A stretch of 62,004 nucleotides of DNA, filler included, from Hausera hauseri (taxonomy: Eukaryota): the NCBI GenBank assembly GCA_046269625.1. It is 11 parts of 11 records of this genome, joined end to end, with 100 filler letters (N's around TTAATTAATTAA, not from the genome) between each part and the next. Parts side by side here need not be neighbours in the genome. Positions count along the whole stretch, not along the records: positions 38,963 to 52,397 come from JBJURY010810975.1; 10 more parts are not named here. One strand, written 5' to 3'. The notes beneath the pieces are model-generated. The model was not told where the DNA came from and ran no database searches. It worked only from the letters and a program-made list of their open reading frames with translations. Below, piece after piece: positions 21,420 to 57,704 of the stretch (positions are counted from its first letter, which is position 1; every line of letters begins with the position of its first letter). The position numbers were made by a program, and so were the translations under genes.

Positions 21420-24400
21420 TCTCCTTGGCAGCGTGCTTGCATCGATTAATGTGAACTTTAACAAAAGTGTTATTTTTCCTCAAACAGATATTCGATAGGT
21501 CTACCTTTTCTACTTCATATGGTCCTTTATATGGTCTATCTAATTTAGACGTTTTACATTTCTTAATTATCGGTGAATATAACATTACTTGATCGCCTAT
21601 CTTAATCTTCGGCTATTTGGTCTTTTGATCGTAGTACTTTTTATATTTTTGTTTATAATCTTTCTGATTATCACCAATCATCTTATATGCTAACTGGAGG
21701 CGTTCCTGCATTAACTGCTTATAATCATCTATTTCCATTAGGTGTGAAATGGGTTTCACATTAAAATCTAGATCGATTGGTAATCTTGCATCCCGTAAAT
21801 ACATTAAATAAAAGGGTGTCTCTTTAGTAGCCTCATGAACCGATGTCCGGTTTACGAAAACACATGCATTGATATATTTGTCCCAATCGTCTTGCCTGGT
21901 ATTTACCACCGTTTGTAATTTCCCTTTTAAATCTCCAATATACATTTCAACCATTCCATTATTCTCTGGTTGTCCTGGCGTGGATCATGACTTTAATATC
22001 TTCAGGATGTCATATATGGACTGCATTACAGTTCCATTTAAATTTGATTCTTGGGGCTCCATAATTAAATACTATATTTTCTACGAATTTCTCAGCGATT
22101 GTGTCTGCTTTCATGTCAGGCATAGGAAGGGCCACAACCCATCTCGTAAAATAGTCGATGAATACTAAGACGTATTTATTTCCATTTCGTGTCAATGAAA
22201 ATGGCCCTGTTATATCCATCGCGGTAAATTCGAATGGTGCTGGAGGGTAGTCCCATATCTTTAATGATGCTTTGAATTTTGCTCCTGTGTTTTTCCGAGT
22301 AGCACACAGCTTGCAGCTCTCGCACCACTTTTGTACATCTTTCGTTATCGTTGGCCAAAAATATTTCAGTTTTAATTTGTTTAGTGTCTTATTGGCTGAT
22401 TTGTGTCTACCAAGTAATCCATCATGATATTGAGTCAGTAAAACTGCTCTAGTTTTCTTGGGAATTACTAACGCAGGTCCATTTTGACTAATAAAATATA
22501 GAAATCCTTCTTTTTCCTCGTAGGCTTCGCTGAATCGAGCCAGATGACGGGTTAGCTCTCTGTCAATTGGTATGGTTTTATCTTTTGTGTATTTTCTAAT
22601 GGCTTTTATTTCAACATCTTCATTTTGATTTGCCTTAATTTTCTCAATTGATCCATCCATACTCCATACGGCTGCGACTACTGCCTTTGTTTCTTTTTTA
22701 TCGAGCATTCTCCATAAATAGTCGGCGTTAGCATTTTGTGTTCCAGGCTTATACTGGAAATTCAATGTATATGGTTGTAACTTTAAAGCCCATCGTAGTA
22801 GTCTGCTGTTTGGGTTCTCATGTTGCTTTAGCCATTGTAGCGGTCTATGATCCGTATAAATCAAGAGCGGTTTATTTTCGCTAATATACGGTGAAAATAC
22901 TTCTAAGGCAAATATCACTGCTAATAGCTCTTTTTCTATTACAGCGTATTTCTTTTGATACTTATTAAGTTTTCGTGATGCATAAGCTACTGGGTGTGAT
23001 TTTCCGTCTTCACCCTTTTGTGATAATACTGCTCCTATTCCATAATCACTTGCATCTGTTGCCAGAATAAATGGTTTGGTCATGTCTGGATAAATTAATA
23101 TAGGAGCCGTTAATAATTTGTTATTTAGATGTTCAAAGGCTTTTTGACATTTGCTTGTCCATATAACTTTATCTAAATCTTCACGTAATAACTCATACAA
23201 AGGTTTCGCAATTTTGCTAAAATCCTTTATGAATCTTCGGTAATAGTTTGCTAGACCTAGAAACTGACGTAATTTTTTAACGGTACCTGGCTTAGGAAAA
23301 TTCCTTATTTTTCCTAAGAGCTTATACTGAGGTTTTACAGTTTGCCTGTCTACTTTATGTCCGAGGAAATCTACCTCTGCTTGAGCAAATAAACATTTAT
23401 TGGGATTTATCTTTAGCCCCATTATTTCGCATCTATCAAAGAGATCCTGTAGATCCTTCAGATGTTGTTGAAAATTTGATGATGCTATTATTACGTCATC
23501 TATATATACCATGGCGTGTGGAACGTCTAATAGTAGGAGTTCTGTTCCTCTTTGAAATGTTGGTGGTCCATTCTTTAACTCAAAGTGCATCCTATTAAAT
23601 TTCAATAGCCCTTCTCCAATTGAGAAAGCCGTCTTTGGTTTATCTTCTTCTTTGACTTCCACTTGCCAATAACCTTTTTGTAGATAGATGGTTGTGAATA
23701 TGGTCAATCCGTGTAATTTGTCTAGTATCTCGTCAATTCTTGGTAGTGGATATGTATCGGTCTCCGTTATTTCGTTCAAAGCTCTATAGTCTATACAAAA
23801 TCTCATAGTACTATCTTTCTTTTTAACCATCACTAGGGTCGCTGTCCATGGGGAGCAACTTGGTCAAATTATCTTATTTTCTCTCATCCCTTTTATTATT
23901 TTACCAGCTTCCTGTTTTTTACCATATGCTAATCGATACGGTCTTTTCTTAATTGGCTTGTCCTGTCCGTCCTTCAACTTAATGACGTGCTGTATTACTT
24001 TCATTGTACCTAGATCATAGTCAGTTTGTGCAAATCGACTGGCATTCTTTTCTAATAATTCGATTAGCATCTCCTTTTCTTCCTTACTTAGAATTTCGCA
24101 TTTTTGCAACCTCTCGTTCCAGTTGAACTTCATGGTTTTATTTCTTTTGTCTTCGTCGGGTTTCTTCTTCAATTTTTCTGTCATCATCTTCTCTATTTTA
24201 TCTGCATCTAATATTATTGAGCAGATTTCTTCTTTTATTATTTCTTTAGTGATCGTTACTTTTCACAGTCTAGTAGCCTTCCGTAATCGTTTTTCTTTGT
24301 TTATTGTGTTACAGATTCGTAAGTGGATCTTTCTATCTTTTGCTTTATCTACCTGAGAGGCGATTAGTACCTCATATTTTTCCATAACCTGTGGAGATAG

Positions 24401-24789: not shown

Positions 24790-27700
24790 CCGTGGGCCAA
24801 TGTGGGCACCACAACACCATACCCCTATTGTCGCCGCCACATTACAACCGCCTATGATACCACCCAATGCAGAAATAGTAGCGCTGAATAACCAAATAAA
24901 CTCTCTCCGGGCTGAAAACACGGCAATACACCAAGCCATTTCTGCTTTAACGTCTAAACTGGACAATTTTTCCATGCCGCGACGAGGTCGATTCACACCC
25001 AATAATAGCCGTGCTTCATCGAACAAATCGAGATCCGCTGGGTCCCCTACTCGACCTATGGTGTGCTATTATCACATTAAATTTAAGAAGCAATCCAACA
25101 AATGTTGCTTGGGGTGTAAATTCTTTACACCAGCCTTCCAAAAATCCGACATCGTTTGTGTTTACCATAATAGGTTCAGCAATAAAGCCCGAAACTGCAC
25201 CAACGGTTGCACGTTTTCGAGTCGACTTAACCAATTCCATCGTAAGTCTCCCGACTCCCCAAATCCTACTATCCAAAAAAACTGACAAAGCCGCCAGATG
25301 TTTCTGCACATACTGGCACAGGCAAACGTCTTCAATCTAATAGCCATACTTATGCCGTTTTTACACTAAAAGCTTATTTAACTTCCGAATCCAATCAGTC
25401 AATCAATTTCCTCATTGACTCTGGGACAGCTGTTTCTTTATTACCACTATCCATCAGAACACTATCTATCTCACCGTCTAACACCAAACTGTACACAGCA
25501 AACGGCCAAGCTCTACGCATTTTTGGCAAATCCAAAGTTTCATTCACGTTACCACCAATCTCCGACATTTTCAATTGGACATTTATCGTTGTCGACACAA
25601 TCTCCAATACTTGGATCTGATTTCTTATCTTTTTACAACCTCCTTGTAGATTGTAGACAACGTCGGATCATTAAGAGCAGTTAAACAAAACCTACCCCTA
25701 CAAATAACCAACAAAGCACGCAACCTATCTCGCCTATAAAATCAATATTAAGAAAACCATCAGCCGACGCAAATAAAAACGTCATTAATACCAATATAAA
25801 TAATTCAACATTTCTGTTGCAGTCCGGTAATAGAGGAACTAAACGCGTTTACAAGGACAATCTAGGCGTCTTGGTTTCTAGCGTTTCTCACACTACGTCC
25901 AATCAAACCTTTACTACGCTTAGCCAAGAAATGCAACAATATTTAGTCAAATCTTGTTTCCATACAATTAAAAAAGACCCAGCATTTCGACCGGCTAACA
26001 TGACGCTTTATCACATCATCACAGAAAACCTTAGGCCCGTTAGGCAGAAACTCCGCCCACTTTCACCACGCCGTCGACAGGCAGTCCAAACGGAATTCTC
26101 TGCACTCGAGCAAGCTGGAATAATAAAACGCTCGAAGTCACCTTGGGCATCACCACTCCACGTCGTCCCAAAAAAATATGGCACATTCTGTCCCTGCGGT
26201 GACTATCGACAACTTAATAATGTCAAAACCATGGATGCTTATCCTCTACCGTTGATTAAGAATATATTGCATTCTTTTCACAAGACTACGATTTATTCAA
26301 CCATAGATCTCGAAAAAGCCTACCTCCAAATACTGGTAGCACCAGAAGACATCCGAAAAACGGCCATTATAACACCTTTTTGTCTTTTTGAATACGCATT
26401 CATGCCGTTCGGTTTAAAAAACGCAGCATAAACATTTCAACGGCACATTGATTCAGTCCTTTCTGGTTTGCCATTTGTATATCCGTGCATTGATGATACA
26501 GCAGTTTCATCGGCATCGCTCAAACAACACGAAGAATATCTCAGGCTAGTTTTTCGCCTCTTACACAACTACAATTTGCAAGTAAGCTTTTCTAAATGTT
26601 CCTTCTTTCACAAAAAAGTCAATTTTCTTGGCCACGTCATCACACCTGACAGTCACAGTCTGCAGCCTGATAGAATCCATCAGCTAGAAACATCGAGCTA
26701 CCGAAAACCACTACTGGTATGCGTAGTTTCCTTGGGACTTTACATTTTGTACATAAATACGTCTCACACTGTGGCCAGTTAACTGCTCCATTCGCTCAAC
26801 TAGGAGCAGGGCCCAAGGAAAAGCTCATATGTTGGACACAGGAACTTATTAACCAGTTTTGTGAACTTCGCGAGAAGCTCAAAACAGTCGAAATTTTAGC
26901 CTACCAAAAACCTGATGCTGACCTCATTCTAACAACCGACGCATCAACTACAGCAGTAGGATCGGTTCTTCATTAAATATCTCAAGGTACAAATGAACCG
27001 TTAGAATTTCTTTCGCGCAAGCTGCAGCCTAGCGAATTCCTCTATTCTACCTTCGATAGAGAGCTCTTGGCTATTGTTTTAGCTCTGAAACATTTTTCAC
27101 ACTTTTTTATCGCTCGTTCCTTTACCATTCAAACTGACCACAAACCTCTTGTTCACGTAATGAACATGAAACAACAATCACTGCGACAAGAACGCCATAT
27201 CTCATATCTGTCAACATTCAACTTCTAAATTTGCCATATTTCTGGCACAGACAATTTAATAGCTGATTTCCTACCACGGTCAGTTGGAGCAATTAGCGTA
27301 ACACCAATTTTCTCAAAGGACCAGTTAATCCAAAATCCACCTTCCAATGAAATTCTGAAACAATACAAGTCCGTGAAAATCATCGATGGAATAGCCATAG
27401 ATACTTCGACACTTGGACAACATTTGCCAATTTTGGCACCTCCTGTCCAACAAACTGCATTTCAGCATGTTCATTCTTTGCATCACCCAGGTTCCAAGGC
27501 TACATTCCGCCTCCTCAAACATCATATAACATGGCCATCAATGAGATCTGACGTACAGAGCTGGATTAGGCAATGCGTAGCTTGACAAAAGTTCAAAGCA
27601 GCTAAATATCTTAAACCACAATTATTCCATTTCCCATGTACATCTCGCTTTGACTCAGTTTACATAGATATCGTTGGCCCATTACCTTCCGATAACGGCC

Positions 27701-28900
27701 ACCAATTCATCTTAACAATGATGGACCACGCGCCTCGTTGGTTGAAATCCGTCCCTTTGTGCTCCATCAGTATGGACTCCATTGTCTACGCATTTATACG
27801 GATTTGGATTAGCCGCTTCGGTTCATCTCATTATATAATTATAGATCAAGTTCCCCAATTTGAATCGAACCTATTCAAGTCTTTAGTTAATCGACTGGGG
27901 ATAAATCACATTCACACAAGTCCATATCACCCCAAGTCGAACGGCTTACTAGAACGTTTTCATCGCACTCTCAAGATCTCATTAAAATACTGGCCAAAAC
28001 TTATAAGAATTGGAAAAACATCCTCCCTTTTGTTTTATTCGGGTGGCGCAATATGCCATATACTACCACCGGTTGCGCACCGACTGAAGCACTTTTTGGT
28101 ACCACAATTTGCGCACTTTTTGAACTCACCGATTTGGACAACACATCAACTGAAGAAACAATTATGTCTGCACAAAATCACTTTGTTCAGCTAAGCCAGG
28201 ATTTTTTCTGCAAAATAGTACATGGTGACAATTCATACTTACCTGATTCTCTATTTAATGCAAAGTTTGTGTGGATAAAACACCCTTCACTTTCCGGATT
28301 CCAACCAAACTACTTAGGACCATATAAAGTTCTCAATCTAACTTTTCACACGGTTACAATACTAAAAAACGACAAAAAACAAAATGTGCACATATCTAAC
28401 GTAAAACCTGCATTTTTCAGTAATGACACACCGGTTCCAACAACCTACTGTGCACATACCTTCCTTGACTCCTTCAACCCTTCTTCTGTTCTACCTCCAC
28501 GACAACCTGCTATTCCAAAACCTGAATCAATACAAAAAAATTACGTTAAACGAAATACCGAATAGTTCTCAAGCTTTTGACACGTCAAATCAAAATTAAA
28601 CTTCCTACCAATTAACTCAGTAAAGAACAAACAACAGGATAAAAAACACAAGACAGTCACCTTCAGCAAATACAGCAGAGAACAAAATATCGACAAAATT
28701 CAACGTCTTATCCATACAAAGACTCATGAGTTCGCTTACACCTGTCTGCCTTGTTTTCTTACTCCCGTTACATTAACACAGTGTTATCTTCGGAACGGTG
28801 GTAGTGTGATGCCGTGGACTCGGGAGCCACCACAGCCTAAGTGCACCGAATTCTGCAATAAACAATGATATCGATTCTCTTCAATATACGTTTTAACAGT
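24790..28900 (+). mobile_element. CsRn1-like Ty3/Gypsy element, decayed
   Basis: Gag with tandem CHCC motifs, FLIDSGT, SPWASPLHVVPKK, TTDAS, IDIVGPLP, YHPKSNGLLERFH and YLGPYKV. PPT-like GGTGGTAGTG then TGATG near 28807. Confidence 0.92.
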
Positions 28901-38579: not shown

Positions 38580-38962
38580 TATCTCGTGTGCACGAGACTT
38601 CGACTTCTTGATGTCTTCCTCGGAGGTTGAGGCATTTAGAGCCTGTCTTGTTGTACCTCAGTTACACGGGGTTCTCTTTTCGCCGTCACGGTCTAAGTCC
38701 ACGGAATCGCTTTCTTTATCCATGCCAACCAAGCCTCGATAGAAGTGGAGCAAATCGGGGCACTACAATAGATTCAGGCTCCCAAAATATCGTTATGTAT
38801 AATACTAGTAGTGAATCAAACAATATAGACGGATCAGGAAGAAAGGGACACGGAGATATGTTNNNNNNNNNNNNNNNNNNNNNNNNNNNNNNNNNNNNNN
38901 NNNNNNTTAATTAATTAANNNNNNNNNNNNNNNNNNNNNNNNNNNNNNNNNNNNNNNNNNNN

Positions 38963-39925
38963 ACTCAAGGAGCAATAAAACCAGATAAAGAACGGGCTAA
39001 CATAACGAAACTAGATGACATAGTACAATCGATGGACCCAATCAAATGGGTATTAAATGAAAATATAGCCAATATTTCAGCTAATAAGAACGACAAATGT
39101 ATCCAAATAGACACAAAAGGAAGACTGTCCAGTAAACAAGAAATCTCAGTCCAATTTACGAAATTAAAGGAGTCAAGTCCAATGCCTGAATATTGTAGTC
39201 TAAAGATCACAAATCTTAGCATCTGTTGTAAAATTGCAGCATGTCATGAATATAGGATTCATTTTGACCTCTATAGAACCCAAATAAATAGATCGAGTAT
39301 CTATTTAGGAAGATATTATCCAGACAATAGAATCTGGAAAACTTCGGTTGAAACGACTACAACTAGCCGAACTGTCCCAGTAAGCACTACTGTTAGGCTT
39401 ACTATGACAAAAAAAGATGAACAAGAAGAAATTACTTAAGATTCCGGTAAATACTCTGCGCAGCAACACAAAATACTATTTTCAGTGGAAGAGAAACTCA
39501 ACTATAATATCGAAATATACTGTCGTACTATGTATAAAAGTGTGAAAACAACTTTATGGAAAGGCTCATATCACACTGAATGTAACTCATTAGTATCCAA
39601 GACAGAATACATAATCCAAATGCATGCAAAAGATGCTCAGAGTCAGACGCTCACAATACAGACCCTAGAAGAACTACAAATAGCACCATATGGAGACAAA
39701 AACACAAAACAAGAAATAACTACAGAGATAACAATTACAAAACCCAAAGGATTGACCACATTATCAATAGTAATGGTCGTAAGTCTGTCAACGCTTGTGT
39801 TTATAATATGTCTTGCGACATTTCGATTAGTTGCCGTAAATTGTCATACTAAGCGTACCAAAATCGTAGAACGGAAATTAAGGGTATGGGAACCCCAAGA
39901 ATACGTCTATGATAAAATAACCTGA
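38963..39925 (+). pseudogene. Type I membrane protein: Cys domain, Thr-rich linker, FN3-like domain, TM, YDKIT tail
   Basis: ECNSLVSKTEYIIQMHAK (FN3 C-terminal signature) and TM LSIVMVVSLSTLVFIICLATFRLVAV. One frame break near 39440. Confidence 0.75.
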
Positions 39926-40043
39926 TTATTACAGATCGGGTTATTCTATCATCAAACAAAGAATTTGTTTTGGTTTAAAAACTATACTTTGTTTTGAGAT
40001 TAACCCTTACTGTCTATTGTTTAAATTGATAAGTATCCAGATG
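39909..40043 (+). promoter_or_regulatory. Conserved double hairpin plus branch-point/acceptor-like signal (copy A; homologs at 46150-46287 minus and 53740-53864 plus)
   Basis: Stems ATGATAAAATAACCTGAT/ATCGGGTTATTCTATCAT and AAACAAAG/CTTTGTTT, then GATTAAC and a T-rich tract before the ATG. Confidence 0.7.
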
Positions 40044-42530
40044 GATTGCGGAATCAGCCGACGTAGCATCGACAATCAATTGGGATCAGGAAGCAGCCGA
40101 CGTAGTATTGACGATCAGGTCAAAAAATCGAATTCAGGAAGGAGCCGACGTAGCATCGACGATTTCCTGCAGAATTGTGCAACAGTATTAATCCCTCCAT
40201 CTAAGTCAATCTTCCGACAAATCAATAACGAACTACTCGCAAAACAATTCGTGGAATACAAACGAACACATGAGATCCCAAATAACTTAAAAGGCAGTAC
40301 CGAGGAAAACCGGACAGTACGATTATATGCAATGAGAGAGGATAAGAACGTGCGAGCGTACGCATTAGAACAACTCGTTCAATACGAACCAGTATATTAC
40401 CAGAATATATTTATTCACTTAGCGGACGGAGGAATCTATTACAGATTAAAAGATCAAAGTTGGGACTCTGCGCAAGGACGCCAACACAGATATAGTATTT
40501 TCCTAATCATTAGCAGAGATTTCCACCATTACAATTGTGAATTAGAATTTCGAGTCGCCGCATTGCCTATCAAACTTATCATAGAAGTATGTTATGAAGG
40601 CGCACCATTTATCCAGTTACCACCATTACGATTCCATTAAAGGCCAACTGAGAAGGATCAAGACGACCACTTACACTCCTTCAAATTAGTCCAAGACGAT
40701 AGAAATGCCAGGATAATTACTGTAGATTACGGAGAAGCAGATGATGACGTCCCAATCGGGGTATCTGTACGAGAGACAGGAGGAACAGAAATCTACGCAG
40801 AATTGATCACTCCCAAGAAGAGAGTACGAGAAACTTGTCTAGAAGTTACTGGAATCAAAAAGGAGCAATTAGTTAACGGAAGAGACATCGAATTAGTTCG
40901 CAAAAAATTACTCCGTTGCCTGTATGGAAGTATACTTGTTGGATATCAAATAGAAAAGATCGTGGAAAGTTGAAATTACCCGATACCCACGTGAGTTGGG
41001 TTAGAGAAATCGAGACCCACCCAATAGTCATGCAGCAGATGGAACAAACCGTTCGCAAGAAGAATGGTTATTTACCACCGACAGTAGAAGGCCGATTTAA
41101 GCCAATGTTGGAAGCTATGAGTGAAGAAGACGTTCGAATTAATAGACTCTTTACAGCGAGCCAACGTTTCCAATATCTAAAAGATATATATTCAGGACTT
41201 AAATGGAAACACGAATGGACTTTCGATAACCCTAGACAAAATTTGCGAAACACAACAAACCCCGAAGGATTAATTTCCAAACACAGAAAGCATTTTAGGC
41301 CGTATTCCCCCGTCAGAATGGTTGAATCAACAACAAGGGACAAACAATTACCCCAGCACCAGTAAAAGCCCAAATTCAGAGGCGGCCGAGCAAAAATCTA
41401 AGGATCAAAAATAATTAAGGGTACCGACAAAACCCGAAAGAAACCAAAAAGGCAAAGAAGAAGCTACATTTTCCACGGGAAAAAGGAAACTATCCCTATA
41501 CGAATACTTATTCAAAAAGAAGAATAATGGAGAAGACAACCGAAAGGTAGTTGCAAAACCTGAAAAGCCTGAAAAGACAGAAACTTAAAACGAAATAATA
41601 AAAAAAGAATCTCCGAGCACCGAAACCCTAAATAACAAAAAAGAAATGCACTCCGAAGAAATAAAAAGAAAGAAGAGAATTCAAACCCAAAGGAGAAAAT
41701 CAGACAGCGATATCGTTACCATTGAAGTGAACGTCTTGAAAAAGAAAATATTAGAAGAAAATGTGTATTTCTCCACGAACAAAGAATTTCCCAGACTACT
41801 CTTAACGGCCGAATATTGTAGCCATAAGAAAATAAAGGAAGCAATGTTCTATGTGAAAAACGCTGGAATACAAGAAACACCAGATGGAGCATACGCTTGG
41901 GAAAATCTCAGCATAGGAAATTATTTAGCCCCAATTTTTTGGTCCAAAAGGACTGGAAAGCTGTTTCTTCCTGTGAACAACCAAATTAAACTAATGTTTA
42001 AAAGGCAATATCAAGCTTACCAAAAGGAAGGTGAGATTCCCGACTTAGATAAAGAAACCATTATGGACTGGACATTAGTCCCAGTAAATTATGATCCTAA
42101 AAAGAGTTCAATTAACACCCAACAAAAAGAACTATACGGTTACCTATATTCCGATCAAGACGGACTAATATTTGAACGAATCCAGATTATACCCAAGGTT
42201 GACTTGGACGATGACGGAAACACGAATGAGAATGAAGACACTTGCCCAGTATGTAACGAGAATATCTGGCAAGGTTACGTTAAATTGGACAACCAAGCGT
42301 GTAGACACAGATACTGTCGCACGTGTTTAGAGACGTGGACGTTGGATAACGGAAAAACGACATGTCCAGTATGCCTAGCCGAGGCTGATGGGTTAAAATT
42401 TTTTTCGAACGGTGAGTGTAACAGATCCGTTCCTATACAAAGTCAGCCCAGTACTAACTATACAATAGAGGTGGAACAAGTTGACGACAGTAGTCTCCGG
42501 AGTAGACTGGACCTACTGCGCCGACAGTAA
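40041..42530 (+). pseudogene. Accessory ORF (about 830 codons): unknown N-domain, DEDDh-like exonuclease fold, Lys/Glu-rich linker, unknown domain, C3HC4 RING
   Basis: RIITVDYGE...VSVRETGG..I..P...VTGIKKEQL..G..I..V....L.G.ILVGY, and CPVC-x15-CRH..C..C-x12-CPVC. Broken by a few stops and frameshifts. Confidence 0.8.
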
Positions 42531-42590
42531 TCGGGCGCCATCTTTCCTGACACAATCGGCACATGCGAGGTGTCGTTCAGGGAGGAGAAA

Positions 42591-43359
42591 TGTTACGATT
42601 ATACATTTTGTAAAGTACGATTATGATAGCTTGCTAAAATTTAGATAAAATGCAATTAGTTTATATTAATATTCGATAGTTGTATTAATATTCGCCAATT
42701 GATAATAATTATGTAATGCGAAAAAACAGGTGTAAATCAAAAGAATTTGTACGTAATCGGAAAGAACGGATTTTAATTATTAGTTAATTGATCGAAAGTG
42801 ATGTAATCGCAAAATGGGTGTAGTATAAATAGAGACAGATTTACAGAATAGTCAGAAAGTTTTTCTGAGTTAGATCCGACAGCGATAACACAGAAAACCG
42901 AAACGTGACATTCGAAGTTAACGTATTCCAGAAGCATCAGAGGATAAAGTGCCCGAGACCTACTGTGGTGAACAAATGGATTACTCAACCGATAGCAAGA
43001 TATTGAAGTACAGGGGACGAACTGTTCAGTAGACAGAATCATTGCGAAATTGTTGATATTTATTTGGGTATTAATTATATTTTGTGTATAAAAGTGTTAA
43101 CTTATTTCTTATAGTTTCCATCGATTCTTAAAATCGATTTGACAACCCTAAGATTGTAAAATTACACTTAACTTATATAGATAAGAGAGATTCTTTTCAA
43201 ACTACGCACAGGACATAGCACGCAGTACCCGTATAGAATCTTAAATCGTAAGGCACATCCTGATTTACCGAGAACGGTAAACCGTACCTGTGTTATAAAA
43301 ATATTTTAAATTTATTGTTAGATAGTGGGAGAAGTTAGGGCCCAACCCAAAATCTAACA
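42591..43359 (+). repeat. 3' LTR of copy A (769 bp)
   Basis: Follows the PPT AGGGAGGAGAAA. Termini TGTTA...TAACA, TATAAATA at 42824. Shares AAAATCGATTT and GCACGCAGTAC with the copy C LTR. Confidence 0.88.
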
Positions 43360-43660
43360 CTTATATACTAATGCAACTGCGTACGTGACTGATTTCATTT
43401 ATTATTTTTGGAATTATAAAGTTTTTAACTTAATTGTTCGGTATTATCCGATTTAAAGATTAATATAAATTCAACGCTTTCTCCAAAAATTTTACAAAAT
43501 ATACCAAATTATTGCTAAATTCTTTCTCTATATTTGTACAAATTCCTAAGTTCGTACAATAATGATAAATACCATAAAATAATAATTATTTACAATTTGC
43601 TGCTGATAATAGTATTTACAATTTTTGGACGTCTTTGCAATACTGGACGTCTTTACAACA
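43360..43660 (-). repeat. Interrupted 3' LTR of copy B (first 301 bp)
   Basis: Minus strand PPT CAGGAGGAGAAA then TGTTG. Ends at TATATAAG, directly abutting the end of the copy A LTR. Confidence 0.8.
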
Positions 43661-46151
43661 TTTCTCCTCCTGAATGGCATCCTCGGATGTGCCTATTGCG
43701 TCAGGAGAGGTGCCGTGAGAACGAGGCGAACGTAATAATTCCATACGTTGTCTTAAACTGGTTTCAAAGCTGGTACTTGGTTGGCTTTCTCTGGGATTTG
43801 TTTCCAATTCGTAACTGTAGTATGGTTTTGTCCTAACTACCCGAGTATAACTACCGTTGGAATAGTAATTCAAATCAGCAGCCTCAGCTCTACATACTGG
43901 ACATGTGGTTTTTCCATTATCCAACGTACATTTCTCCATGCAGTCTCGGCAATATTTGTGTCGGCAATCCGGGTTATTTAGTTCTACATATCCTTGCTTC
44001 AGATTCGCCTCACATACGGGGCATTCATGCTCTTCTCTCTCATAATTTCGATAGGTTCTATTATCAACACTTCTTCATCTTGGTATAAGTAGGCATATAT
44101 TCTCTTCTGTTTCGGATTTATTGAGCTTTTCTTGGGATCACATCCCACGGTTATTAGAGTCCAATCGCTGATAGTACCTCGATTTAAATCGAGAACTTCA
44201 CCAGTCGATCGGTATTTTTGATATTGTTTCTTTAGTAACAACTTTATTGATTTATCCACGGGGACTAGAAGTTTGCCATATCGGTGCAACGTATTTTCCG
44301 ATCTTAGGATTTTCCCAGACATAAGTGTTCTCGTAGACTTGTCTGGCGGGCATTAATTTGACGAAAAACATCGCCTCTTTGATCCTTTGTTTACTATAGT
44401 ATTCTGTCGCAACCAACATTTTAGGATAATGCTTTGTAGTGGCGTAATGTATGTTGTCCGTAGAGTTCTTCTTCCGTAATATATTTATTTCCGTTATCCG
44501 TTCCTTCTGTTTGCTCGTTATCCTTGTAGACTTCTCAGTATGGGTTTGAATAGTCGTTTTTGATGATCTTTTTGCTTGTATTCTTGGACTGTTGGTTCGC
44601 TTTATTTTTGAATCCTTATTGTCTGATCTGCGCCCTTCTTTTGGTTCATTTTCCCATTTACTTTTTTTCTTGAATAAATATTTGAGGAAGGAGGTTTTCC
44701 TCTTAGCTATCTTTCCGATTTCGATTTCTGGAATTCTGTCTTTTTCTTCTAGGTACTTTCAGGGAACTTCGGGTATTTTAAATAAATTATTATTTTCAGC
44801 GTTCTCCATAGTTGACGCGGCGCAATAACTTGTACTTGGCCTTTCCTCTGTTTTTAGTTTATTTCCCGTTTTCTTGGTTCTCAATCCTTGGATCGTTATT
44901 TGATAATTCCACTTTGGTGTCATTTCGACGTTTCATGGTGGAGAGTATGGGCAGAAGTGTTTTTTGTATCGTGTACTGACCCCTTCAAGTTTGGGAAAAC
45001 TTCGTAGGTTCTGTCCGGGGTTATTGGGAATCCATTCATGTTCTCATCTTAATCCAGCGTTTGTGTCTCTTATATACTGGGATCGTTGACTAGCGATCAA
45101 CAGTCGGCTTATTTTTATGTTTCCTACGGTCATTGCCTCTACCATTAACTTAAATCGGCCTTCCACGGTCGGTGGTAGATGACCCTTTTTCTCTTTAACC
45201 TTGATATCCATTTGTCCCATTACAGTTGGGTGGGTCTCTATCTCTCTGATTCCGGCTAGGTGAGTTACTGGTATGTTTAATTCCTCTATCATTCTTTCTA
45301 CTTGATACCCCACTAAGACGTATCCGTATAGGCACTGTGCTACTTCCTTTTGCACTAATTTAGAATTTTTTCCGTGTATTAATTGTTCTCGTTTAATCCC
45401 AGTTACTTCTGCATAGGTTTCTTGTACTTTCTTTCTTGGGTTAATGATTTTCGAACAGACCTCGGCCCCATTTTCTTCTCGTATGAAAATTTCAATTGGG
45501 ATATAATTTCCTTCATCTCCTTCTCCATAGGCTATTGCGGCAATTCTGATGTTCCTGTCATCGGTTACTAATTTGAATGAGTGTAGATGCGCGTCCTGTT
45601 CTTCTTCAGTGGGCCTTTGCTTAAATTCTAAGGGCGGCAATGTAGTGGTTATTGTTTCCTCTTTAGTTATTTCGACTATCATTTTCACAGGTAATGCAGC
45701 TATACGAAATTCCAACTCGTAATTGTGGAAACTTCTACTGTTAAATACTAACGTGCTAAACCGGCTTTGTCTTCCTTTGGAATGAATCCCATTTTTGGTC
45801 TTTTAGCCGATAATAGATTTCCCCGTCGGCTAAGTGTACATATATTTTCTGTTCCTTGTCCGTTTGGTGCTGGGTGATCTGTTTCAAGGGGTATGCTCTG
45901 GCATCCTTATCTTCTCTCCATGCATATAAATATATAGCTCTGGCCTCTTCAGTTGTTTCTTTTAAATGGTTTTGTATATCGTCGATTTTTGTGTACTGAA
46001 TGAAGTTTTGTCCTTGCAATTCTGTGTTGATTTGCCTATAGATGGCTTTTGAGTTCGGGATACGTACAGTCACATACTGTTCCAAAAATTCGTCGATGCT
46101 AAGTCGGCTCGTATTTTTCTCATCGTCGATGCTAAGTCGGCTCGGGTTCAT
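43616..46151 (-). pseudogene. Accessory ORF copy B (DEDDh-like fold plus RING)
   Basis: IAAIAYGE...IINPRKKV...EVTGIKREQL..G.....VQKEVAQCLYGYVLVGY, and CPVCEANL...CRHKYCRDC...TCPVCR. Confidence 0.82.
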
Positions 46152-46270
46152 TTGGATCTGATTACTTACCAATCTGAAAAAAAGACATAAAGGTTAATCT
46201 TAAAACAAAGGATGGTCTTAAACTAAAACCAATTCTTTGTTTGATGATAGAATAACCTGGTCTGTAATTG

Positions 46271-47700
46271 TCAGGTTATTTTATCATACGGATCTACCGG
46301 GTTTTTCAATTCCCTTAATTCCCATTCGGAGTTTTTAGGACGCTTAGAATAACGGTTTTTGGTAACTAGTCGAAAAATCGCAATTAACATAATGAGAACA
46401 AACGTTGACAGTGCAGAGATGGATACGATCGACAGTGTAGTTAATCCCATTGGTGTTTGTGTGGTGACTAGAGTTGTGATTTCCTCATCTACATCCTCAT
46501 ATGAATGCTACTCTGCACGAGTTTCGCCTAAGGTACACAATGTGATGGTTTGGTTTTGTTTATTCTCTGCATGCACTTGTACTATGTATTCGGTTTGTGG
46601 TTTTAATAAGTTGCACTATGTTTGATAAGTATTTTCAAATAGCGTCACAATTTTATTATTATATGTTGTTTGACAACTTATTTATATATTGTAGTTTTGT
46701 TTCTTTTTCACAAATAACACAATTTTAGATCGATATGCCGAATATTTAATTGGAATGCTTCCTAATTCTCTTTTAGGCACACGGCTTGACGTAGCGGTTA
46801 CCGTAACGGCACTAACTCGAGTGGCTGGCTTTTTAGTGGTCAATTCTACTGTGATTTTCCATATTCAATTTTCTGGATAATAAGTTCGTAATTGTACACT
46901 TGATTTGTTAGGTCGTACCTCGTACAAGTCGAATTTTATTCTAAACTCTTGGTTCACGGGTAGTTTGCAACAAGGGTGTTGTACGCCTGCGCAAATAGAA
47001 CAATATTTTATTTTCAGAGTTGGTCTATTAGCTGCTTCGAATGTGATACTAATTTCTCGACTGATAGTTAACTCTGTTTGGGCATCTACTTGGATGCATT
47101 GTTTCTGCTTGTTTACAGAGATTCTCCAAATATTTTCGTCTAATAGTCTTACATCTGGGTCGGTAGATCGTAGCATTTCGCTGGGTTTTACTCCATGATG
47201 TCTGTTCCATGCATGAATGACTAATTGAAATTGTGGTTTTACTTCGATATAAACTTCGATTGAGTCTGGTAAGTATAGGCGATAAATAAGGTTATAAATA
47301 CGTCCAAAATCTATGTCGCAACTCTGCGTATTTTCTCCAGGCTCAAAATCACAATTCTTCGCTTCTTTCGTTGTTACATCATATAAACCAATCTGAAATC
47401 TTCCGAAATCGTGGTGTGGCCTCCAAGCCTAAAATCCAACACATACTGTATTTGGCGAGTAATAATGAATTGTCATTTATTGTAACAATTTAATATCTTC
47501 TTGTCTTTGAATTTCTTCGACTGTTGGTTTCTTCTTCGTTTTAATTGTTTCCGGTTTTGCTCCACTCTTCCGAATTCCATATATATCTCCTAACGTAGAT
47601 TCATCGTGCCACCTTTGAATCTGTGTTCGCAGAATATAAGAAGCAATTAATGATAATGCTAAAACTATCTGAACATATGATATTGGTCTAGCAATTATTG
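46271..47700 (-). pseudogene. Type I membrane protein copy B (signal-like segment, two Cys domains, FN3-like domain, TM, YDKIT)
   Basis: ISYVQIVLALSLIASYIL follows the integrase end KRYNLRQRK in frame. CNLLKPQTEYIVQVHAEN; TM GLTTLSIVSISALSTFVLIMLIAIF. Confidence 0.75.
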
Positions 47701-47719
47701 AGGAAGTTTTTACCTTACG

Positions 47720-50700
47720 TTGACGTAAATTATAACGTTTATTGGGCCGTATTTCCGTCTTAACAACTCTTTGTACTGACACGATTTCTTCCTTTCCGTT
47801 TTTGTTGATGTACACCGTGGTTGGTGTAACTCTGGTAACTTCGTACGGTCCTCTGCCTGTACGAGTTAATTTCAATGAGGTGCCTTTTTTGGCTACGGGA
47901 TAGTGTACATAAACTCAATTCCCTTGTTCTAAATCGTGCGGTTTAGTTTTCTTATCATATTGCTTTTTAAACTGCTCTTGATATTCTTGAGACAACTCTT
48001 TGGCGATTTCCCAACATTTTTGCAATCGCACCTGTAATGCTTCTGCAAAATTCTGTTCCAAGTCTTCCGGCTTTACCGTGTAGGGCGTCATTCCTAAGTC
48101 TGTACGTAACACAGCTTCACGTCCATACATCATAAAAATGGCGTAAATCCTGTTGCTGGATGCGGAGTAATATTAATTGCAAATTGAGTTCCTTCTAAAA
48201 ATTCGTCCGAATCTTTTTTGTCCTAAGCTACTACGGTTGATAGTATAGGTATGACAATTGCATTCATTCGATCAACTATTCCATTACACTGCGGATGATA
48301 CGCAGTTGTGGTTAACCTTACGATTTCAAATATTTTGCTAATCTTCTCGAATAGTTCACTGTCAATATTTGGTCTGGCGGTCCATATCGGCAAATGATTC
48401 TTCTAACCACAACTTTGGCCAAGGTTTCTTCCTTTTGATCAATTAGCGCTATTCGACAAAATGAGTTAGTCGATCAATACAAGTCAAGATGTAATTATTG
48501 TCCTTGTGTATCGTAGGTAGCGGTCCTACGATATCCATTGATATGGCCTGCATGGGTCTATCCGGTACGTTGATTGGTTTCAGTTCTGCCATGCATTTTT
48601 TGTCTTCTTTTGTTTCGTCGCACATACTTTACAAGCATTCACCCAATTTTTTACATCAATATAGATACTGGGCCAAAAGTACTTATTCAATATTCTTTCC
48701 AGCGTCTTTTTCCATATGTGTCCTGCTAAATATGAATCATGTTCTGCCATTAAGACTTCGGTTCGTAAACTCTTAGGAATGACTATCAGTTTTCTTCCTT
48801 TCCGTTCGTGATATAAGATATCTACATTACTTTTGTCATTTAAGACGCAGTATTTATGTCCCTGCCTGTGTAAATGTTTCTTTGCCGTCCTTTTGGTATG
48901 ATGGCCTTTTTACCAAATTCTATAATTTGCTGAATAACTTTATCCTTCCTTTGTTCGATGGAAATTTTAATCGTTTTATCCATTGTTAAGACGCGACTTT
49001 TCTTCATTATGGTGATTACACTTGTTTTCGTCCTGAATCTTGATAGTGCATCGGCATCTACATGTTTATTTCCTGGTTTATATTGGAATTCAATATTGTA
49101 TCTAGAGATTTCTTCGATCCATCTATTAAGTCTGCGTGTCGGATTATTTGCTTGGCCTTTTAAGGTCGTGACGGCTTTATGGTCAGTGACAATTATAATT
49201 TTCTGCCCGCACACATAAACGTTGAAATTTCTAAGCGATTCTTTTACTGCTAGGGTTTCTAATTCAGTAACAGAATAATTTTTCTCGGCTTTCTTCAGGG
49301 AACGTCCTCAATAAGCAGTTGGGTGTTCTAATTCTTCATCTTTTCTTTTCTGCGCTAATTCATATCCAATACTTTCTTTAGTGGCATCTGTTTTGATTAA
49401 AAAAGGTGAATTGAAGTCTGGATATCGTAGAACTGGTTCACTTTTTAATATTTTCTTCATTTTGTCGAAGACTTTCTGTTCGACATCCGTCCATTTCCAT
49501 TTAATTCCCTTTTTGAATAGTCGGTACAGAGGTGCATTAATTTTTGAGTTATCCGGTACGTAGGTGGCATAATATCCACAAAGGCCTAGCCAATATCTTA
49601 ACTCTTTCTGATTTTGAGGTTCCATGCAGTCTGATATCTTGTTTAATATTGATTTGTCCGGTTTTGATCCTCCTTCTTTGACTATATGGCCAAATTAAGA
49701 TACTGCGTTCTGTGCCCATTTACTTTTCGGATTTAATTTTAATCCGGCCTGTTCTAGTCCCATCAACGTGTGTTCAATATCCTTTAAGTGTTCCTCTTCC
49801 GTTCTTGACGCTATCATTACATCGTCTAAATATGCAAAAGCAGGGTCTAACCCCAATAATATTTTGTTTATCATCCCTGTAAATATGGCCGGTCCGGTAT
49901 TAATACCAAAGGGCATTACGTTGTATTCATAAACACCATTGTGTCTTGAACGCTGTTTTATATCGATCTTTGTCTTCGATTTCTACTTGCCAAAATTCGG
50001 ATTGTAAATCCAGATATGGTAAGCCATTTTGCCCCTAAGAGTCTATCCAGAGCCTCTTTTACACATGGCATTGAAAAAGAATCTTTCATCATGAAATTAT
50101 TTAGTCCTCTGTAGTCGATACAGAATCGATGTTTCTTAGTACCTTTCTTTTTAACCATGAGGATTGGTGAGTACCAGGATCTATAACTGGGCCTAATTAT
50201 ATCGGCCTTAAGCATTCGCTTGACTTCTTTTGTTATCTTGGGTCTTAGTGAAAGTGGCGGAGGATACCATTTCGGCATTTTTTGATCTTCAAGATCTATC
50301 TCTTCATTCGAACCAGGCTTCTTCTGAAGCGGAATAGTCAACTTTAATGACTTTGCCCTGCCAATATCTTCGTCGTTCTGAGCAATAATCGACTTATAGC
50401 GACACAATAATTCATAGAATTGACAATATGATTCAGGTGAAGACTTAGTTTCAACATGCGGTGGGAAATCGGCATACTTGTAAGAATTTTCTTCAGTACT
50501 TATAGATGACACCCTATACGTATCTCCTAAAGTCGTATAGGCATGAAGTTTTACGGGGGTCGGTACATTATTTTCTATCCTGATCGTCAAACGACCGGAG
50601 TATACTCTTGTCAATAAGTTACTGAGTATTGTATTTGGATTCAATGTCTCCTTTGGTTCAAAATATACCGGTTGATCATCATCTTGTTGAACATGCGCGT

Positions 50701-51140
50701 AAATTATTATTTCTGTTTTCGGCGGAATGTTTTTATTTACTGGTATCCATACTTCCCCAAATTTTCTATCCTTCGTGTTTTTTACACCTTTATTCGGCCT
50801 AATTTCTATTAATTTTCCCGTTTGTAAGTCTATTGCTATATTCTGTAGCCTTTTTTATAGGTCACACCCTAAAACTACGTAGTCAGTTAATTGTTCCATG
50901 ATTGCAAATTCGTGACGGAAGAACTGTCCGACTATTTGGACTTCTGGGTTCCATTTGAACATTGGTTTCGACATTTGGCCAAAAGCTCCTCTGCTGCCTG
51001 GGTCTTCCGTAAATGATGGGTATAACTGTCCTCTTAAGGTTTGAGGTATACAATCTATTTTAATGTAAGACATCTCAGAAACCGCATCAATTAATGCGTA
51101 AACCTCCCAGTCTTCAAGAATGATTTTGGCGAAGGGTCTT
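47720..51140 (-). pseudogene. pol copy B (PR, RT, RNase H, integrase)
   Basis: YALIDAVSE and VVLGCD (PR), RFCIDYRGLN and YLDDV (RT), KTDAT and VTDHKA (RH), IDIVGPLP, YHPQCNG and GRGPYEV (IN). Confidence 0.93.
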
Positions 51141-51829
51141 CTTTCTATTACTGTTCCAAAACAGTTTGATGCAACTTTTGGACGCTTATTCGCCGATATT
51201 TTATGTCCGTTGATTCAGATTTCTGGGGAGGATATTATGTTTTCTGATCATTGTCTTAGTTCTCCGTTTGGATATAATCCATTGTTTTCCACGTCCAATT
51301 CTTTCGTTTCATGAGTACTAAATAATGGTTCTCGATTGTTCGTGTGAGGCTCTATATTCCGGAAAGTTTTTAACCTTGGATTTTCCCAGACAAGTGATCT
51401 AGTCTCTATGTTCCGAGGTTCTCTCGGGGAATACAATATTTTAGGGTCAACCATGGGTTGTCGATAACATATTTTTCGTAGGACTCCATAACGTTTCGTT
51501 CCTTTATAGGGGTCTTCTAAACTAATTGTCCTCTTATAGATTTTTGTATGATACGATTTCATTGATCGCTTGTCACAATCTTCGTAAACTGGAGCAGTAG
51601 GGAGTAGCATAGGCAGTGGTGCTTTAATGACGGAATACGTTCTGTGCCTTTCAGTTTTCGAAGGTACTTCTCCTCTCTTAGGCTCGTTATCATCTGAACT
51701 ATTCCTTTGTGTATTATGTTTCGTGATTTTCCGCTTGTTCAAGAACATAGGTTTCCTTTTTCGTTTACGATTATAGTAACTGACATGACGTTCTACGTCC
51801 GATTTCCATCTATTCTCTTCGTATGCTTT

Positions 51830-52397
51830 CAAAAACTTTCCAAAAGACGTTATAATTGCAGTTAGTATCTTGCATGAAAATCCAGTCAATGTAAATATTT
51901 CATAACCATTTATTACTGTTTGGATGACTGCCTTAATTATTTGTATCAGGAAATATATCGCTAAGAATCCGGATGCGGCTTGTCGAAAAATCAAAAATCT
52001 TCCCTAAGTTTTGTAGAGTATTTCTGTGGTTACCCTCTGGTAATGGTTTACGCCAAGCAGTGATTCCCATTTAGCTTGATATCTAGTATCATCTACTACC
52101 GAGGCCATGGCTCGATTTAATTCATGTGTCCGCTGTCGTGGAAAGGCAAGAAATTGTCTAAAGGCTTCAATATCTTTAGGCCTATATATGCCTTTTTGTG
52201 AGGTATCCTGGAACTTGTCGACGGTGATTCCTTTTGCAAGATTCGTGCCAGTTAGCTTCCTTGGGGCAGCAGTAATGCATCCATTAGGAAAACTGACCCA
52301 ATCTGTTTCTCTAAGTCTAAACATAAGCTCGCCCAAACTTGCCTTGCAATCTTAAAGGATTGTTGGTTCAGTTACGTTATCTAATAACACTAGTGAG
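51830..52397 (-). pseudogene. Chuvirus-like (class III-type) fusion glycoprotein, C-terminal part
   Basis: DC...LMFRL...W..FP, GIYRPKDIEAFRQFLAFP, T*GRFLIFRQAASGFLAIYFLIQIIKAVIQTVINGYEIFTLTGFSCKILTAI. This fits the recalled chuviral G pattern GIY...D....R....FP / W..F..FG..SAG......IK....T.IHGY.L....GWS..LL.A. Confidence 0.78.
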
Positions 52398-52497
52398 NNN
52401 NNNNNNNNNNNNNNNNNNNNNNNNNNNNNNNNNNNNNNNNNTTAATTAATTAANNNNNNNNNNNNNNNNNNNNNNNNNNNNNNNNNNNNNNNNNNNN

Positions 52498-53756
52498 CTT
52501 CTTATGTACCCAAGGTGAAATCGATAACTATAGCCGAAAAACTACGATACGCGATGAAACGCAGGTATATCCAGAATATGAGTACACGATATGGATTGGA
52601 GCAAACCATGTGTATGGTTTGAAGCAAGCGAACCTATTAAGAACCACGTAAAACTTCAAATAACATTTGTAACCAGATACACGATGAGAACATGTGATTT
52701 TCCATACGGATATGAAAAAAGATGCTGTGATTTGGATTTTGGACAAACCTACGGATGCAGATTTCAAGTGCTTTATTCTAATCAGTTTGCAGCTCAAGTT
52801 TATATAATTACAGAACTCGTAATAAGAATGCCCCAACAAGAGGACGCAAACCAAGCCAAGACGGACGAAATAATCCGAAGCACTGACCCGTTTAAAAGAC
52901 TCTTAGATTATAACATTATGGGGATTTACAAGGACTTACAGAATCAGTGTATACGAATTGAGACCAAAATAGAGCTGCCTGGAGACAGACAAAATTCTGT
53001 CTCATTTATACCATTAAATGCTTACATTTCTAACCCGGAGTATTGTTATCTGGCCAGACACCTATCTACTACGTACTGTGTAATACAAATAGAACAGGAT
53101 TATCAGTTTTAATTCGACCTGTACAATACGTACCCCGGAGAACAAAGCACTTATTTAAGAGGATACTGTCCGAAAAACGGAATATGGAAACTGTCATTCC
53201 CAACCACTACGAAAAAACGGTCTACTGCTCCGAATACAACTCGCACTACTACGATCGTCACTTTGGATGGAATGCCAGGAAGCATACCGGTTAAGATTTT
53301 GGCAAAAAGCAATAAAATTCTATTTTTTGCTGAAGAGACGTTAAATCAAGACGCCAAAATTGAATGTCGCACCCTGCACACCAACCAAGTCGTGATCCTG
53401 AGAAAGAATAGTCAGGAAACTGAATGCAGGTCATTACGGCCGCAACATTACTATATAGTCAGAATCACTGCAAAGAGTAAGAACCCTAAAACGTACACAG
53501 TGTGGACTTTAGATAATAGAATTGAAATAATGCAGCATAAGGGTCTTAGTACCCAAAGTGTGTTCACCACAAATAGTTCCATCAAGGAAAATAATTTACC
53601 AATAATAGCTATATTTAATTTGCCTAGTTTCGTTCTTGTCACATTAAAGGCGATGATTTTTCTATTTTCCACAAATTGTAATAAAAGCTGTAAATATCAA
53701 AAAGGAGATAAAAGGGAAAAAAGCACCAAGACGGACTTTATGATAGCATAACCTGA
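52498..53756 (+). pseudogene. Type I membrane protein copy C
   Basis: Two Cys domains, ECRSLRPQHYYIVRITAKS (FN3-like) and a hydrophobic segment. An alternative frame ends LYDSIT*. Confidence 0.72.
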
Positions 53757-53861
53757 CAACTACAGAATGGATTATCCTACCATCAGACAGAGAAAATGTT
53801 TTGTTTCAAAACAATGATCTGTCTTAGGATTAACCTTTATTTTTATTTTAGCAGAGTAAGT

Positions 53862-56288
53862 ATGGCCAAGAAGGCGAAGAATCCACAGTCAGTTCCAATT
53901 TTGATATCGATGGCTTCCTACAGCAGCACGTCACGGTTCTTAAACCACTATCCAAAAGCTTATATCGACAAATTGGAGAAAATCTGAAAACGCAGAACTA
54001 TCCAGAGTTCGACCAAGAAAGTAAAATACCAAACGGACTAAAATGGGGTTTAGAAGAGAATCGACTGGTTCGATTATATGCCATGCGAAATCCGAAGGAT
54101 GCACGGGCATATCTTTTAAGAGATCTAATTCCATACGAGCCGACACATCAGCAATTGTACGTACATGTCGCTGATGGATAAATTCAATTCAGGATCGTAG
54201 GACAATCCTGGAGTACGCAAAAAGGGCAACAGTGGAAATTTAGTACTTATGAGCTATGCTGCTATAGCCTCATAAATTATGCTCTGGAATTCAGGATCGC
54301 GGACCTTCCGACCAAAATTATGATCGAGATGACGTGGTGAACAGAGGTAATGAAGCCACTACCACCGTTATTATACGTAAAGAAGCCATCAGAAGATGAA
54401 ATAGAGTAAATGGGAAATTGTATAGATTAGTCCCAGATGGCCGAAATACCCGGATATTAGCCGTAAACTATGAAGAAAAGGATGACGGATGGTATGTTCC
54501 GATTGAGGTCTCTATCAAAAATACTAATGGAGAACAGGTTGTAAATAAAATAATCGCACCATGAGCGATAAAAGGATACTTTTCCTGACGTTGAAGGAAT
54601 TACAAAAGTTCAGCTCGAAAAAGGAAAGGATTTCTTGTAGATCCAAGAAGATATAAGCCATTGCTTATATGGATATATTGTTACCGGATTCCGAGTGCAC
54701 AAAGCGTTGGAACGATTAGGAATTAGGCAAGAATATATAGCCGGAATTCGAGAATTGAGCCAAAACCCAGCAGTTGTGAGCCAAGTAGAAAATACCTTGA
54801 TGCGGAAAACAGGTTGCCTGCTTCCGTCAGCATTGCGCGAATCGCAATTTTAGATGATGCTAGAAGCCATGAATGTCGAACGATCCAAATTCCATAACCT
54901 GATTAAAACAAGTCAACGGACCAAATTTATAAAAGATATCTATGACTCGTTACGATGGGATCACGAGTGGAAACCTAGAAATTACATGCAGAATGCGATA
55001 TTCGACAATAACCCCAAGATCCTAATACAAAAAATCCAAAAAGGATTTAGTAAATACCCGATTTATCGGCAAGTAGTACCCCAAGAACATAACCGATTTT
55101 GAGTGACAGTTCAAAATAATCCAGTAGAAGTTCCTAACAGCCAACAAAAACCAACGACCAGTCAAGCTCAAAAAGAAATAATAGTGAAATCAAATAACCC
55201 CGACAACTCAAGAAGGCAAAAGACAAAAACTTCCTTCCTGGAATATATTAGTAAGAAGAAGAGCAAACCTAGTAAAAATCAAACAGACGAAAACAAACCA
55301 GCAGCCGACAGCCCAATTCAGAAGGAACCGACAAACGATCAAAAGGAAATATCGAACCAACAAGGAACAAAGGAAAACAACGAAAATCAGTGAAGAACTA
55401 CCAAAACCGGATCGTTTAAGACAGAAGTTAACGTTCTTCGGAAAAACTGGGAGGAAGATACTACAATTATCGTTACAGAATTCGGTCAAGTGAAGGAATA
55501 TAAAAGAATCCTCGTCATGCCTGAGTATTATAGCAAATGTAAAATCAAAGCTATATTTTATGTATCCACTGTCCCTAGAAGAATAGTAAGTGGAAACGGG
55601 TATGCCAGAGAAGATACTACCATTGGCAGATACCTAGCCCCAATATTTCAATCAAAGAATGGCACTAACAGATTGACAATTCTCGTGGATACCCAAGTTA
55701 GAATTCAACTAAAAAGACAATACAAGAAAACTGGAGTACCCGACTTGGATAAATAGGAAATAGTTGAATGGACATTGGTTACGGTATCCGACGATCCGAA
55801 GAAAAATTCAATAGACCCCAATAAAAAGAGATTATACGGATATATATACCAAGACAAAGAGGGACTGGCATTCGAGAGAATAGAATGGATGAAAACCTTG
55901 TGGACATCGACGGAGCTGAAAAGGAAGAATGTCCCGTTTGCGACGCGGATCTCTATCAAGGATTCGTAGTACTGGACAACAAAGATTGCAGTCACAAATA
56001 TTGCCGGTACTGTTTAGAGACGTGGACCCTGAAAATGGGAAAACGACCTGTCCAGTATGCAGAGCCGAAGCTACAAGGCTGAGATACTACTCAAATGGAG
56101 AAAATAAGAAAATAGTAGAGATATTACCCGAGAAGGCCACTACGTCCTACCATTTTAACTTGCAATTGCCGTCGAACGAAACGGATTCGGAAGCGGACTT
56201 ACGCGGACGAATGAAGCGATTACACGGCACCTTTACTGACGCAATGGGCACATCCGAGAGTGCCGTTCAGGGAATAGAAATGTTGTGA
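53862..56288 (+). pseudogene. Accessory ORF copy C (DEDDh-like fold plus RING)
   Basis: RILAVNYEE...VPIEVSIKNTNGEQVVNKIIAP...GIT..QL..G......EDISHCLYGYIVTGF, and CPVCDADL...CSHKYCRYC...TCPVCR. More decayed than A or B. Confidence 0.78.
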
Positions 56289-56978: not shown

Positions 56979-57245
56979 AGTTGGCACTCGCTAGACTTGA
57001 CTTTTAGTGAAAAGTAACTACATATTAGCGATCAGCGCTACCACATCAAATAATTGATTGTAGATTGTTGTGAAATTGAAATTTGGGATTATAAGAAACC
57101 CTCAGTATTATAACGACATATTATTGGATCAAGAACGAATATTGATAGACATAAGTCAGACGATAACTTAAATCTCATTCTAAACGGTAAGGAGAATAGT
57201 GATTTTCGAGAAACACGTAATAGAGTTTATAGACAATGTAAGACG

Positions 57246-57704
57246 TTGATTAGACGCACTTTATCTGAAACAAATTTAGCTAATACTGAATCTATTGACT
57301 TAAACGCTGTTGAACAGCCTATTGAATTTAAAGTTCCTGATAAGAGAATTAGAGCTCGTAAGGTAGTTAAGCAAAATCTAGTAAACGTTGAGAATATTGT
57401 TGAAAATCAAGCAGTAGCTCAAAAATTGGATATTTTTACATTCGATTCTCTAAATCTTCAGGCGTACGACGGAGACCCGGACGGACTTAATGAGTTCTTA
57501 AGGACATATAAGTTGCATGCAGAAGGTGCTGGACTTGCAGCTAACGTGATGATTAAACGTTTGTCGTTGTATTTAAAGAATCTGGCCGCTGATGCCTATA
57601 GTGAACTCACTGACGAGGAGAAGAAAACTTGGTCCTCCTTGGTAGGAGCCCTGAATCGAAAATTGTTACCGACTGTAACTCCGCAGCAAAACTCATGGCT
57701 TTCC
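57246..57704 (+). CDS. Gag (capsid N-terminal region), partial
   Basis: AYDGDPDGLNEFLRTY...RLSLYLKNLAADAY..L......TWSSL..AL, downstream of the PBS. The start codon is uncertain. Confidence 0.85.

Follow-up and report, generated by a model that had tools for sequence, protein, structure and literature searches.

A putative RING E3 ligase, very probably fused to an exonuclease-like domain, in the last gene of a decayed env-bearing Ty3/gypsy-type retroelement of Hausera hauseri

Retroviruses usually hijack host ligases via adaptors such as Vif, and ICP0, IE2/PE38 and poxvirus p28 are viral single-chain RING-HC E3 ligases. Among LTR retroelements, errantiviruses with a GAG-ENV-POL order and an HSV/gB-type env have been described in Platyhelminthes, Bryozoa and Nematoda (Chary and Hayashi, PMC13524379), in a paper whose main text contains no occurrence of "RING", "exonuclease", "accessory" or "ubiquitin". 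The Burro/GYPSM1 giant gypsy elements of planarians have env between gag and pol, and the part of the paper drawn on here describes ubiquitin-related cargo in them (an AIR1 "RING Zn-finger" motif, MATH, BIR and Ubi2/SUMO-like domains), providing a precedent for such cargo in env-bearing gypsy elements (PMC6431247). The bdelloid rotifer LTR elements Juno and Vesta carry a DEDD-family exonuclease gene (ORF3) downstream of pol, in a paper with no mention of RING (PMC5408684). The Hausera hauseri element described below is similar to the errantiviruses in having a Chuvirus/gB-type fusion gene upstream of a Ty3/gypsy pol, but has two further ORFs between integrase and 3' LTR, a difference that holds against the main text of PMC13524379. 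It shares with Burro the env and ubiquitin-related cargo; however, Burro cargo sits in the gag-env-pol polyprotein or upstream, whereas the present element has a stand-alone C3HC4 RING at the end of a 3' accessory ORF, and neither the exonuclease fold nor the adjoining domain, which we call domain X, is among the Burro cargo in section 7 of PMC6431247. Like Juno and Vesta it has a DEDD-family exonuclease-type gene downstream of pol, but their ORF3, as described in PMC5408684, is RNase D-like (DEDDy) with catalytic residues kept, while the one here is ISG20/REX-like, degenerate and RING-fused. In the open-access literature, we found no description of an architecture of RING, pseudo-nuclease and domain X in an LTR element. 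What appears to be new is an element-encoded RING under selection, very probably fused to a pseudo-nuclease via domain X; DEDD exonuclease ORFs and ubiquitin-related cargo in LTR elements were already known.

The stretch of DNA analysed (the window; 62,004 nucleotides, filler included) consists of 11 pieces joined by identical 100-nt linkers, N44-TTAATTAATTAA-N44 (10 sites, the first at 4043-4142; e.g., 38863-38962 and 52398-52497), so that neighbourhood across a linker carries no meaning. The piece at 38963-52397 (JBJURY010810975.1) holds two related retroelement copies arranged tail to tail, copy A on the plus strand from 38963 and copy B on the minus strand from 52397, and copy C lies on the next piece. 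About 1 kb separates the LTR edges of A and B (42591-43660), and these two copies are ~65% identical in the exonuclease region. All three copies are broken, and none of the three is intact. The ORF at 41646-42530, described in the initial annotation as a retroelement-encoded RING preceded by a conserved domain, is what survives of the 3' end of the last gene in a decayed, env-bearing Ty3/gypsy-type LTR retroelement, other parts of which are as follows.

51251-52351, minus strand: env remnant of B, a Monjiviricetes-type fusion glycoprotein, upstream of pol (PF24664, E 7.1e-13)
47480-51214, minus strand: decayed pol of B, with protease-like domain, ~140-aa insert, RT, RNase H and integrase zinc domain
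38978-39922 (plus strand), 46274-47428 (minus strand) and 52582-53748 (plus strand): second accessory ORF, with a strong C-terminal transmembrane segment (KD 2.65-2.71)
42579-42598, plus strand: purine tract and TG (TG at 42591) of A, read as polypurine tract and start of the 3' LTR

Read from B, the order of the element is fusion gene, protease-like domain, RT, RNase H, integrase zinc domain, the ORF with the transmembrane segment, and the pseudo-nuclease-X-RING ORF. The pol order PR-RT-RNase H-integrase is thus present in B, with a weak protease match (E 0.11), and the best PDB matches for the start of its RT are 4ol8 and the Ty3-G Gag-Pol 7q5b. No gag can be seen, as the contig piece stops within the env of B (52397), and from the paired LTRs of the element, the polypurine tract and the 3' LTR edge alone were seen. 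The ~140-aa insert between protease and RT of B (~50400-50854, minus strand) had no Pfam or PDB match; the dUTPase-like domain of Burro occupies the same position. The second accessory ORF, located between integrase and pseudo-nuclease ORF, is common to A, B and C, and Pfam gave no significant match for it. Elsewhere in the window, other pieces hold further Ty3/gypsy pol fragments (10046-12766, 18429-19222, 22013-23863, 25685-28194 and 61205-62004), of which 22013-23863 (minus strand) is an unbroken 617-aa RT-RNase H-integrase frame, and an inverted pair of ~890 nt, 84.5% identical, lies on two pieces (2424-3309 and 4238-5120). Behind the 3' LTR edge of C, an ORF at 57114-57704 (plus strand) resembles by eye what we take to be the beginning of the Gag capsid of gypsy elements, and would then belong to an element in tandem or nested arrangement; it had no Pfam match at E up to 1.

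At the 3' end of the gene, the RING is followed by a ~60-nt block with 83-85% identity among the copies; a purine tract closes this block, and TG comes next (at 42591 in A, 43660 in B and 56281 in C), and in all three copies the ORF abuts tract and TG. The frames of B and C extend past this LTR edge, and the stop of A at 42528 lies 63 nt short of it. Given that the ORF ends at the polypurine tract and that the frames of B and C cross the edge, the gene lies inside the element. We consider both ends of the 41646-42530 ORF to be probably products of decay. A contig scan of 41150-42750 (run X1) returned 622 contigs, 51 of them at ≥99% identity and 296 under 90%, and at the stop just upstream of this ORF, the 10 related contigs among the matches listed all read differently from A. 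Given that run X1 is possibly the source of the window itself, these contigs show a multi-copy family and are not independent support.

The RING finger and the tail behind it were located as follows.

42243-42377, plus strand: C3HC4 RING of A, with Leu as linchpin residue and all eight ligands in frame
43889-44023, minus strand: C3HC4 RING of B, eight ligands in frame, Arg linchpin
55930-56063, plus strand: RING of C, eight ligands over two frames, Arg linchpin
42378-42530, plus strand: C-terminal tail of A, closed by a first stop that is probably premature

All eight zinc ligands reported in the initial annotation for A, B and C are indeed present, in a single frame in A and B and over two frames in C. 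The finger of A reads C-x2-C-x15-C-x1-H-x2-C-x2-C-x12-C-x2-C in one frame (42243-42374), that of B has identical spacing on the minus strand from 44023, and this pattern matched twice in the window vs. never in 30 shuffles; the corresponding PF00097 scores are 29 bits in A and 25.4 bits in B, with a cut-off of 21. In C, a frameshift splits the finger into ligands 1-6 (55930-56013) and, in another frame, ligands 7-8 (56031-56063), and in B a frameshift and a stop cut the RING off from domain X. The closest solved fingers are cellular (TRIM5, RING2, TRIM21 and Praja-1), and an equine herpesvirus RING appeared lower in the list (E 0.027), so that the earlier comparison to ICP0 and IE2/PE38 stands as an analogy and not as the nearest relationship. 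Arg directly follows the last Cys in B and C (2/3 copies), as in the aligned TRIM5, RING2, TRIM21 and Praja-1. Although the linchpin residue varies among E3s, Arg is the most effective one, according to the part of the source consulted (PMC12326332). The linchpin codon of A departs from that of 39 related contigs in run X1, and its Leu state looks copy-specific. The Trp four residues after ligand 6, kept in A and C and absent in B, aligns with a Trp of Praja-1, a residue of the RING central helix that presumably has a role in E2 binding. No single copy keeps both linchpin Arg and Trp in an unbroken RING; the linchpin and Trp deviations, each in a single copy, fit decay of a canonical E2-binding surface.

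The finger thus fits a RING E3 ligase, and we regard the protein as probably such an enzyme. As in the single-chain RING-HC E3 ligases TRIM5, TRIM21 and RING2, a C3HC4 finger with linchpin Arg (B and C) stands next to what would be an adjacent folded domain. The RING could instead be a zinc scaffold or dimerisation module devoid of ligase activity, like arenavirus Z or an inactive heterodimer partner, in a protein of dead enzymes that acts by binding; given that the two deviations fall in different copies, that the one in A looks private to this copy, and that the nearest structures are active E3 RINGs, we consider this unlikely. Beside the RING, Pfam detected none of the known partner domains (B-box, coiled-coil, SPRY, KilA-N or others), and the domain preceding the finger in A had no Pfam match at E up to 5, with a structural model too poor to exclude a remote fold.

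That domain, X, was delimited in each copy.

41709-42191, plus strand: domain X of A, ~160 aa, from alignment and codon-position conservation
44047-44503, minus strand: domain X of B, in two frames
55412-55885, plus strand: domain X of C

Domain X of A is 49% identical to that of C and 42% and 56% identical to the two halves of that of B, with identical residues in 50 of the 150 three-way columns. The initial annotation had summarized this region by four conserved motifs, which hold mostly in looser form: YLAPIF.S and the DPKK..FERI pattern each occur literally in 2/3 copies and PDLD..TI.DWTL in one, and relaxed forms of these are found in all three copies, while EY....IK.A.F.V as written matches none. 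In all five pairwise comparisons, identity in X was 0.25-0.44 at codon position 3 vs. 0.62-0.77 at positions 1-2, and codon-position conservation was similar in the RING and the exonuclease-like part. The low position-3 identity indicates that purifying selection acted on X during the divergence of the lineages, and that the breaks came later. Codon-position conservation also largely refutes the reading that the element carries a captured fragment of a host RING gene as cargo without function: third-position divergence is typical of purifying selection, position and order were kept in three lineages ~50% apart in protein, and X resembles no known host family in database searches, so that such neutral cargo appears extremely improbable. 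X had no significant match in Pfam, PHROGs, NCBIfam or PDB sequences, nor in protein searches or contig scans, and a four-row AlphaFold2 model (pLDDT 33.7) gave no usable fold match. Its secondary structure is predicted, at low confidence, to be mostly beta with a central helix. RING E3s generally carry substrate-binding domains, as stated in the part of PMC12326332 cited here. From this general rule and from the position of X beside the RING, X has about an even chance of being the substrate adaptor of the putative ligase.

Upstream of X, the gene includes the following parts.

40041-40637, plus strand: N-terminal part of the same ORF in A, with in-frame Met, SRRSIDD repeats and a beta-rich prediction
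40641-41311, plus strand: DEDDh/ISG20-like exonuclease remnant of A with C-terminal extension, frameshift near 40970
41301-41708, plus strand: linker of A, basic and of low complexity, with 33 K+R among 136 aa and two stops in frame
44504-46151, minus strand: N-terminal and exonuclease-like domains of B with the linker, in a single frame shared with X from 45802 on
54587-55885, plus strand: second half of the exonuclease-like domain, linker and X of C, one frame with 5 stops

Matches of the exonuclease-like part are weak (Pfam RNase_T E 2.5e-4, below the cut-off; NCBIfam E 9e-5; ISG20L2 E 0.025). In the alignment, read by eye, the catalytic acids are not conserved across copies, with DYG, AYG and NYE at the Exo I position, and the position of the GH motif reads GY or GF; the domain is likely a disabled nuclease. 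The N-terminal domain is predicted to be beta-rich, with weak cupin and jelly-roll matches. The ORF opens with short repeats of SRRSIDD/SRLSIDD type, of which A has three (40056-40165, plus strand) and B two (~46090-46145, minus strand).

The earlier suggestion that the RING and the exonuclease-like domain lie on the same polypeptide is borne out by the open frames of B and C and by a linker motif found in all three copies, and we consider it very probable that exonuclease-like part, linker, X and RING formed one chain. In B, the frame that leads from the exonuclease-like domain into X has 3 stops over 510 codons, and the two alternative frames have 32 and 44; the corresponding counts for the 433 codons of C are 5 vs. 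28 and 29. In 2000 composition-matched simulations for each copy, the best frame never had fewer than 13 stops for B or 11 for C. The linker contains 33-35 K+R in A and B and 18 in C, and its identity between copies is 26-45%. Within this otherwise divergent sequence, 14 residues, K-x-K-x-S-[FL]-x-[EK]-Y-[LI]-x-KKK, form a motif that is kept in frame in 3/3 copies (41481-41522, plus strand; 44663-44704, minus strand; 55220-55261, plus strand). We take this motif to resemble a PCNA-binding (PIP) box of non-canonical type that carries a basic tail, a candidate assignment that would point to a nuclear, replication-linked target. Against the fusion, exonuclease part and linker of A are in different frames. 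Protein and contig searches returned no intact relative.

Upstream of the ORF for this chain lies a conserved block.

39909-40040, plus strand: conserved block between membrane-protein ORF and pseudo-nuclease ORF in A

The block has matches at ~46160-46290 in B and ~53740-53870 in C, and its first 100 nt show 77-89% nucleotide identity vs. 67% for the X coding sequence. Downstream come GATTAAC, a run of pyrimidines, AG (B and C) and then an in-frame Met in A (40041) and B. This resembles a splice acceptor, and from it we infer a subgenomic spliced message. In B and C, the upstream stop lies in a CAA-YTA context, presumably like that of known leaky stops, and the frame offsets do not support readthrough from that stop into the next ORF. 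In B and C, GTAAGT, which looks like a splice donor, follows 4 nt after the acceptor-like AG. Together with the length and poor conservation of the linker, this would be compatible with an X-RING acting apart from the pseudo-nuclease, either released by the element protease or made from its own spliced RNA, such that the nuclease does not aim the ligase. However, there is no Met common to the copies before X (neither B nor C has a Met matching the one at 41646), no second acceptor was seen by eye in the A-rich linker, and the frame is open through the linker in B and C, making a separate X-RING decidedly improbable.

The ligase could also serve the cycle of the element itself, by ubiquitinating Gag, Env, the neighbouring membrane protein or a receptor and thereby driving budding, trafficking or superinfection exclusion instead of destroying a defence factor. 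The element has env, with the ORF carrying the transmembrane segment right upstream, and the RING-bearing ORF crosses the polypurine tract like a retroviral 3' accessory gene, for which nef is an analogy. On the other hand, X-RING is free of any hydrophobic segment (max KD 0.39) and the charge of X is balanced, the linkers of A and B are strongly basic, and a nuclease fold in the same protein suggests action at nucleic acid and not at membranes. Given these features, we regard a role in the element's own cycle as improbable.

Directly observed are the zinc ligands of the RING, a domain X that is conserved and was under selection, a common frame for exonuclease-like part and X in both B and C, and a gene position just inside the 3' LTR. 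Starting from these observations, we lean slightly towards a single-chain E3 ligase targeted by a dead nuclease and basic linker, with X selecting a host protein. The gene, of ~860 codons, would be expressed from a subgenomic, probably spliced RNA using the conserved block upstream of the Met at 40041. The RING would recruit a host E2-ubiquitin conjugate, X, packed next to it, would select the substrate, and the dead nuclease and basic linker would bring the protein to nucleic acid or the nucleus. Such delivery would make a host silencing or RNA-surveillance factor the most likely substrate, and we tentatively suggest a host defence factor as the target. A wider reading, which we hold to be doubtful, is that a clade of env-bearing gypsy elements carries its own anti-silencing ligase, in which dead nucleic-acid enzymes serve as readers that find the RNA or chromatin of the element and X is a new fold presenting PIWI-pathway or heterochromatin proteins to the RING, in a manner similar to ICP0. 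If the proposed single-chain ligase is real, domain X, so far set apart by sequence searches without a match, would be a new protein family, likely substrate-binding, and the element's own RING E3, fused to a pseudo-nuclease, would represent a direct counter-defence mechanism in animal transposon conflict.
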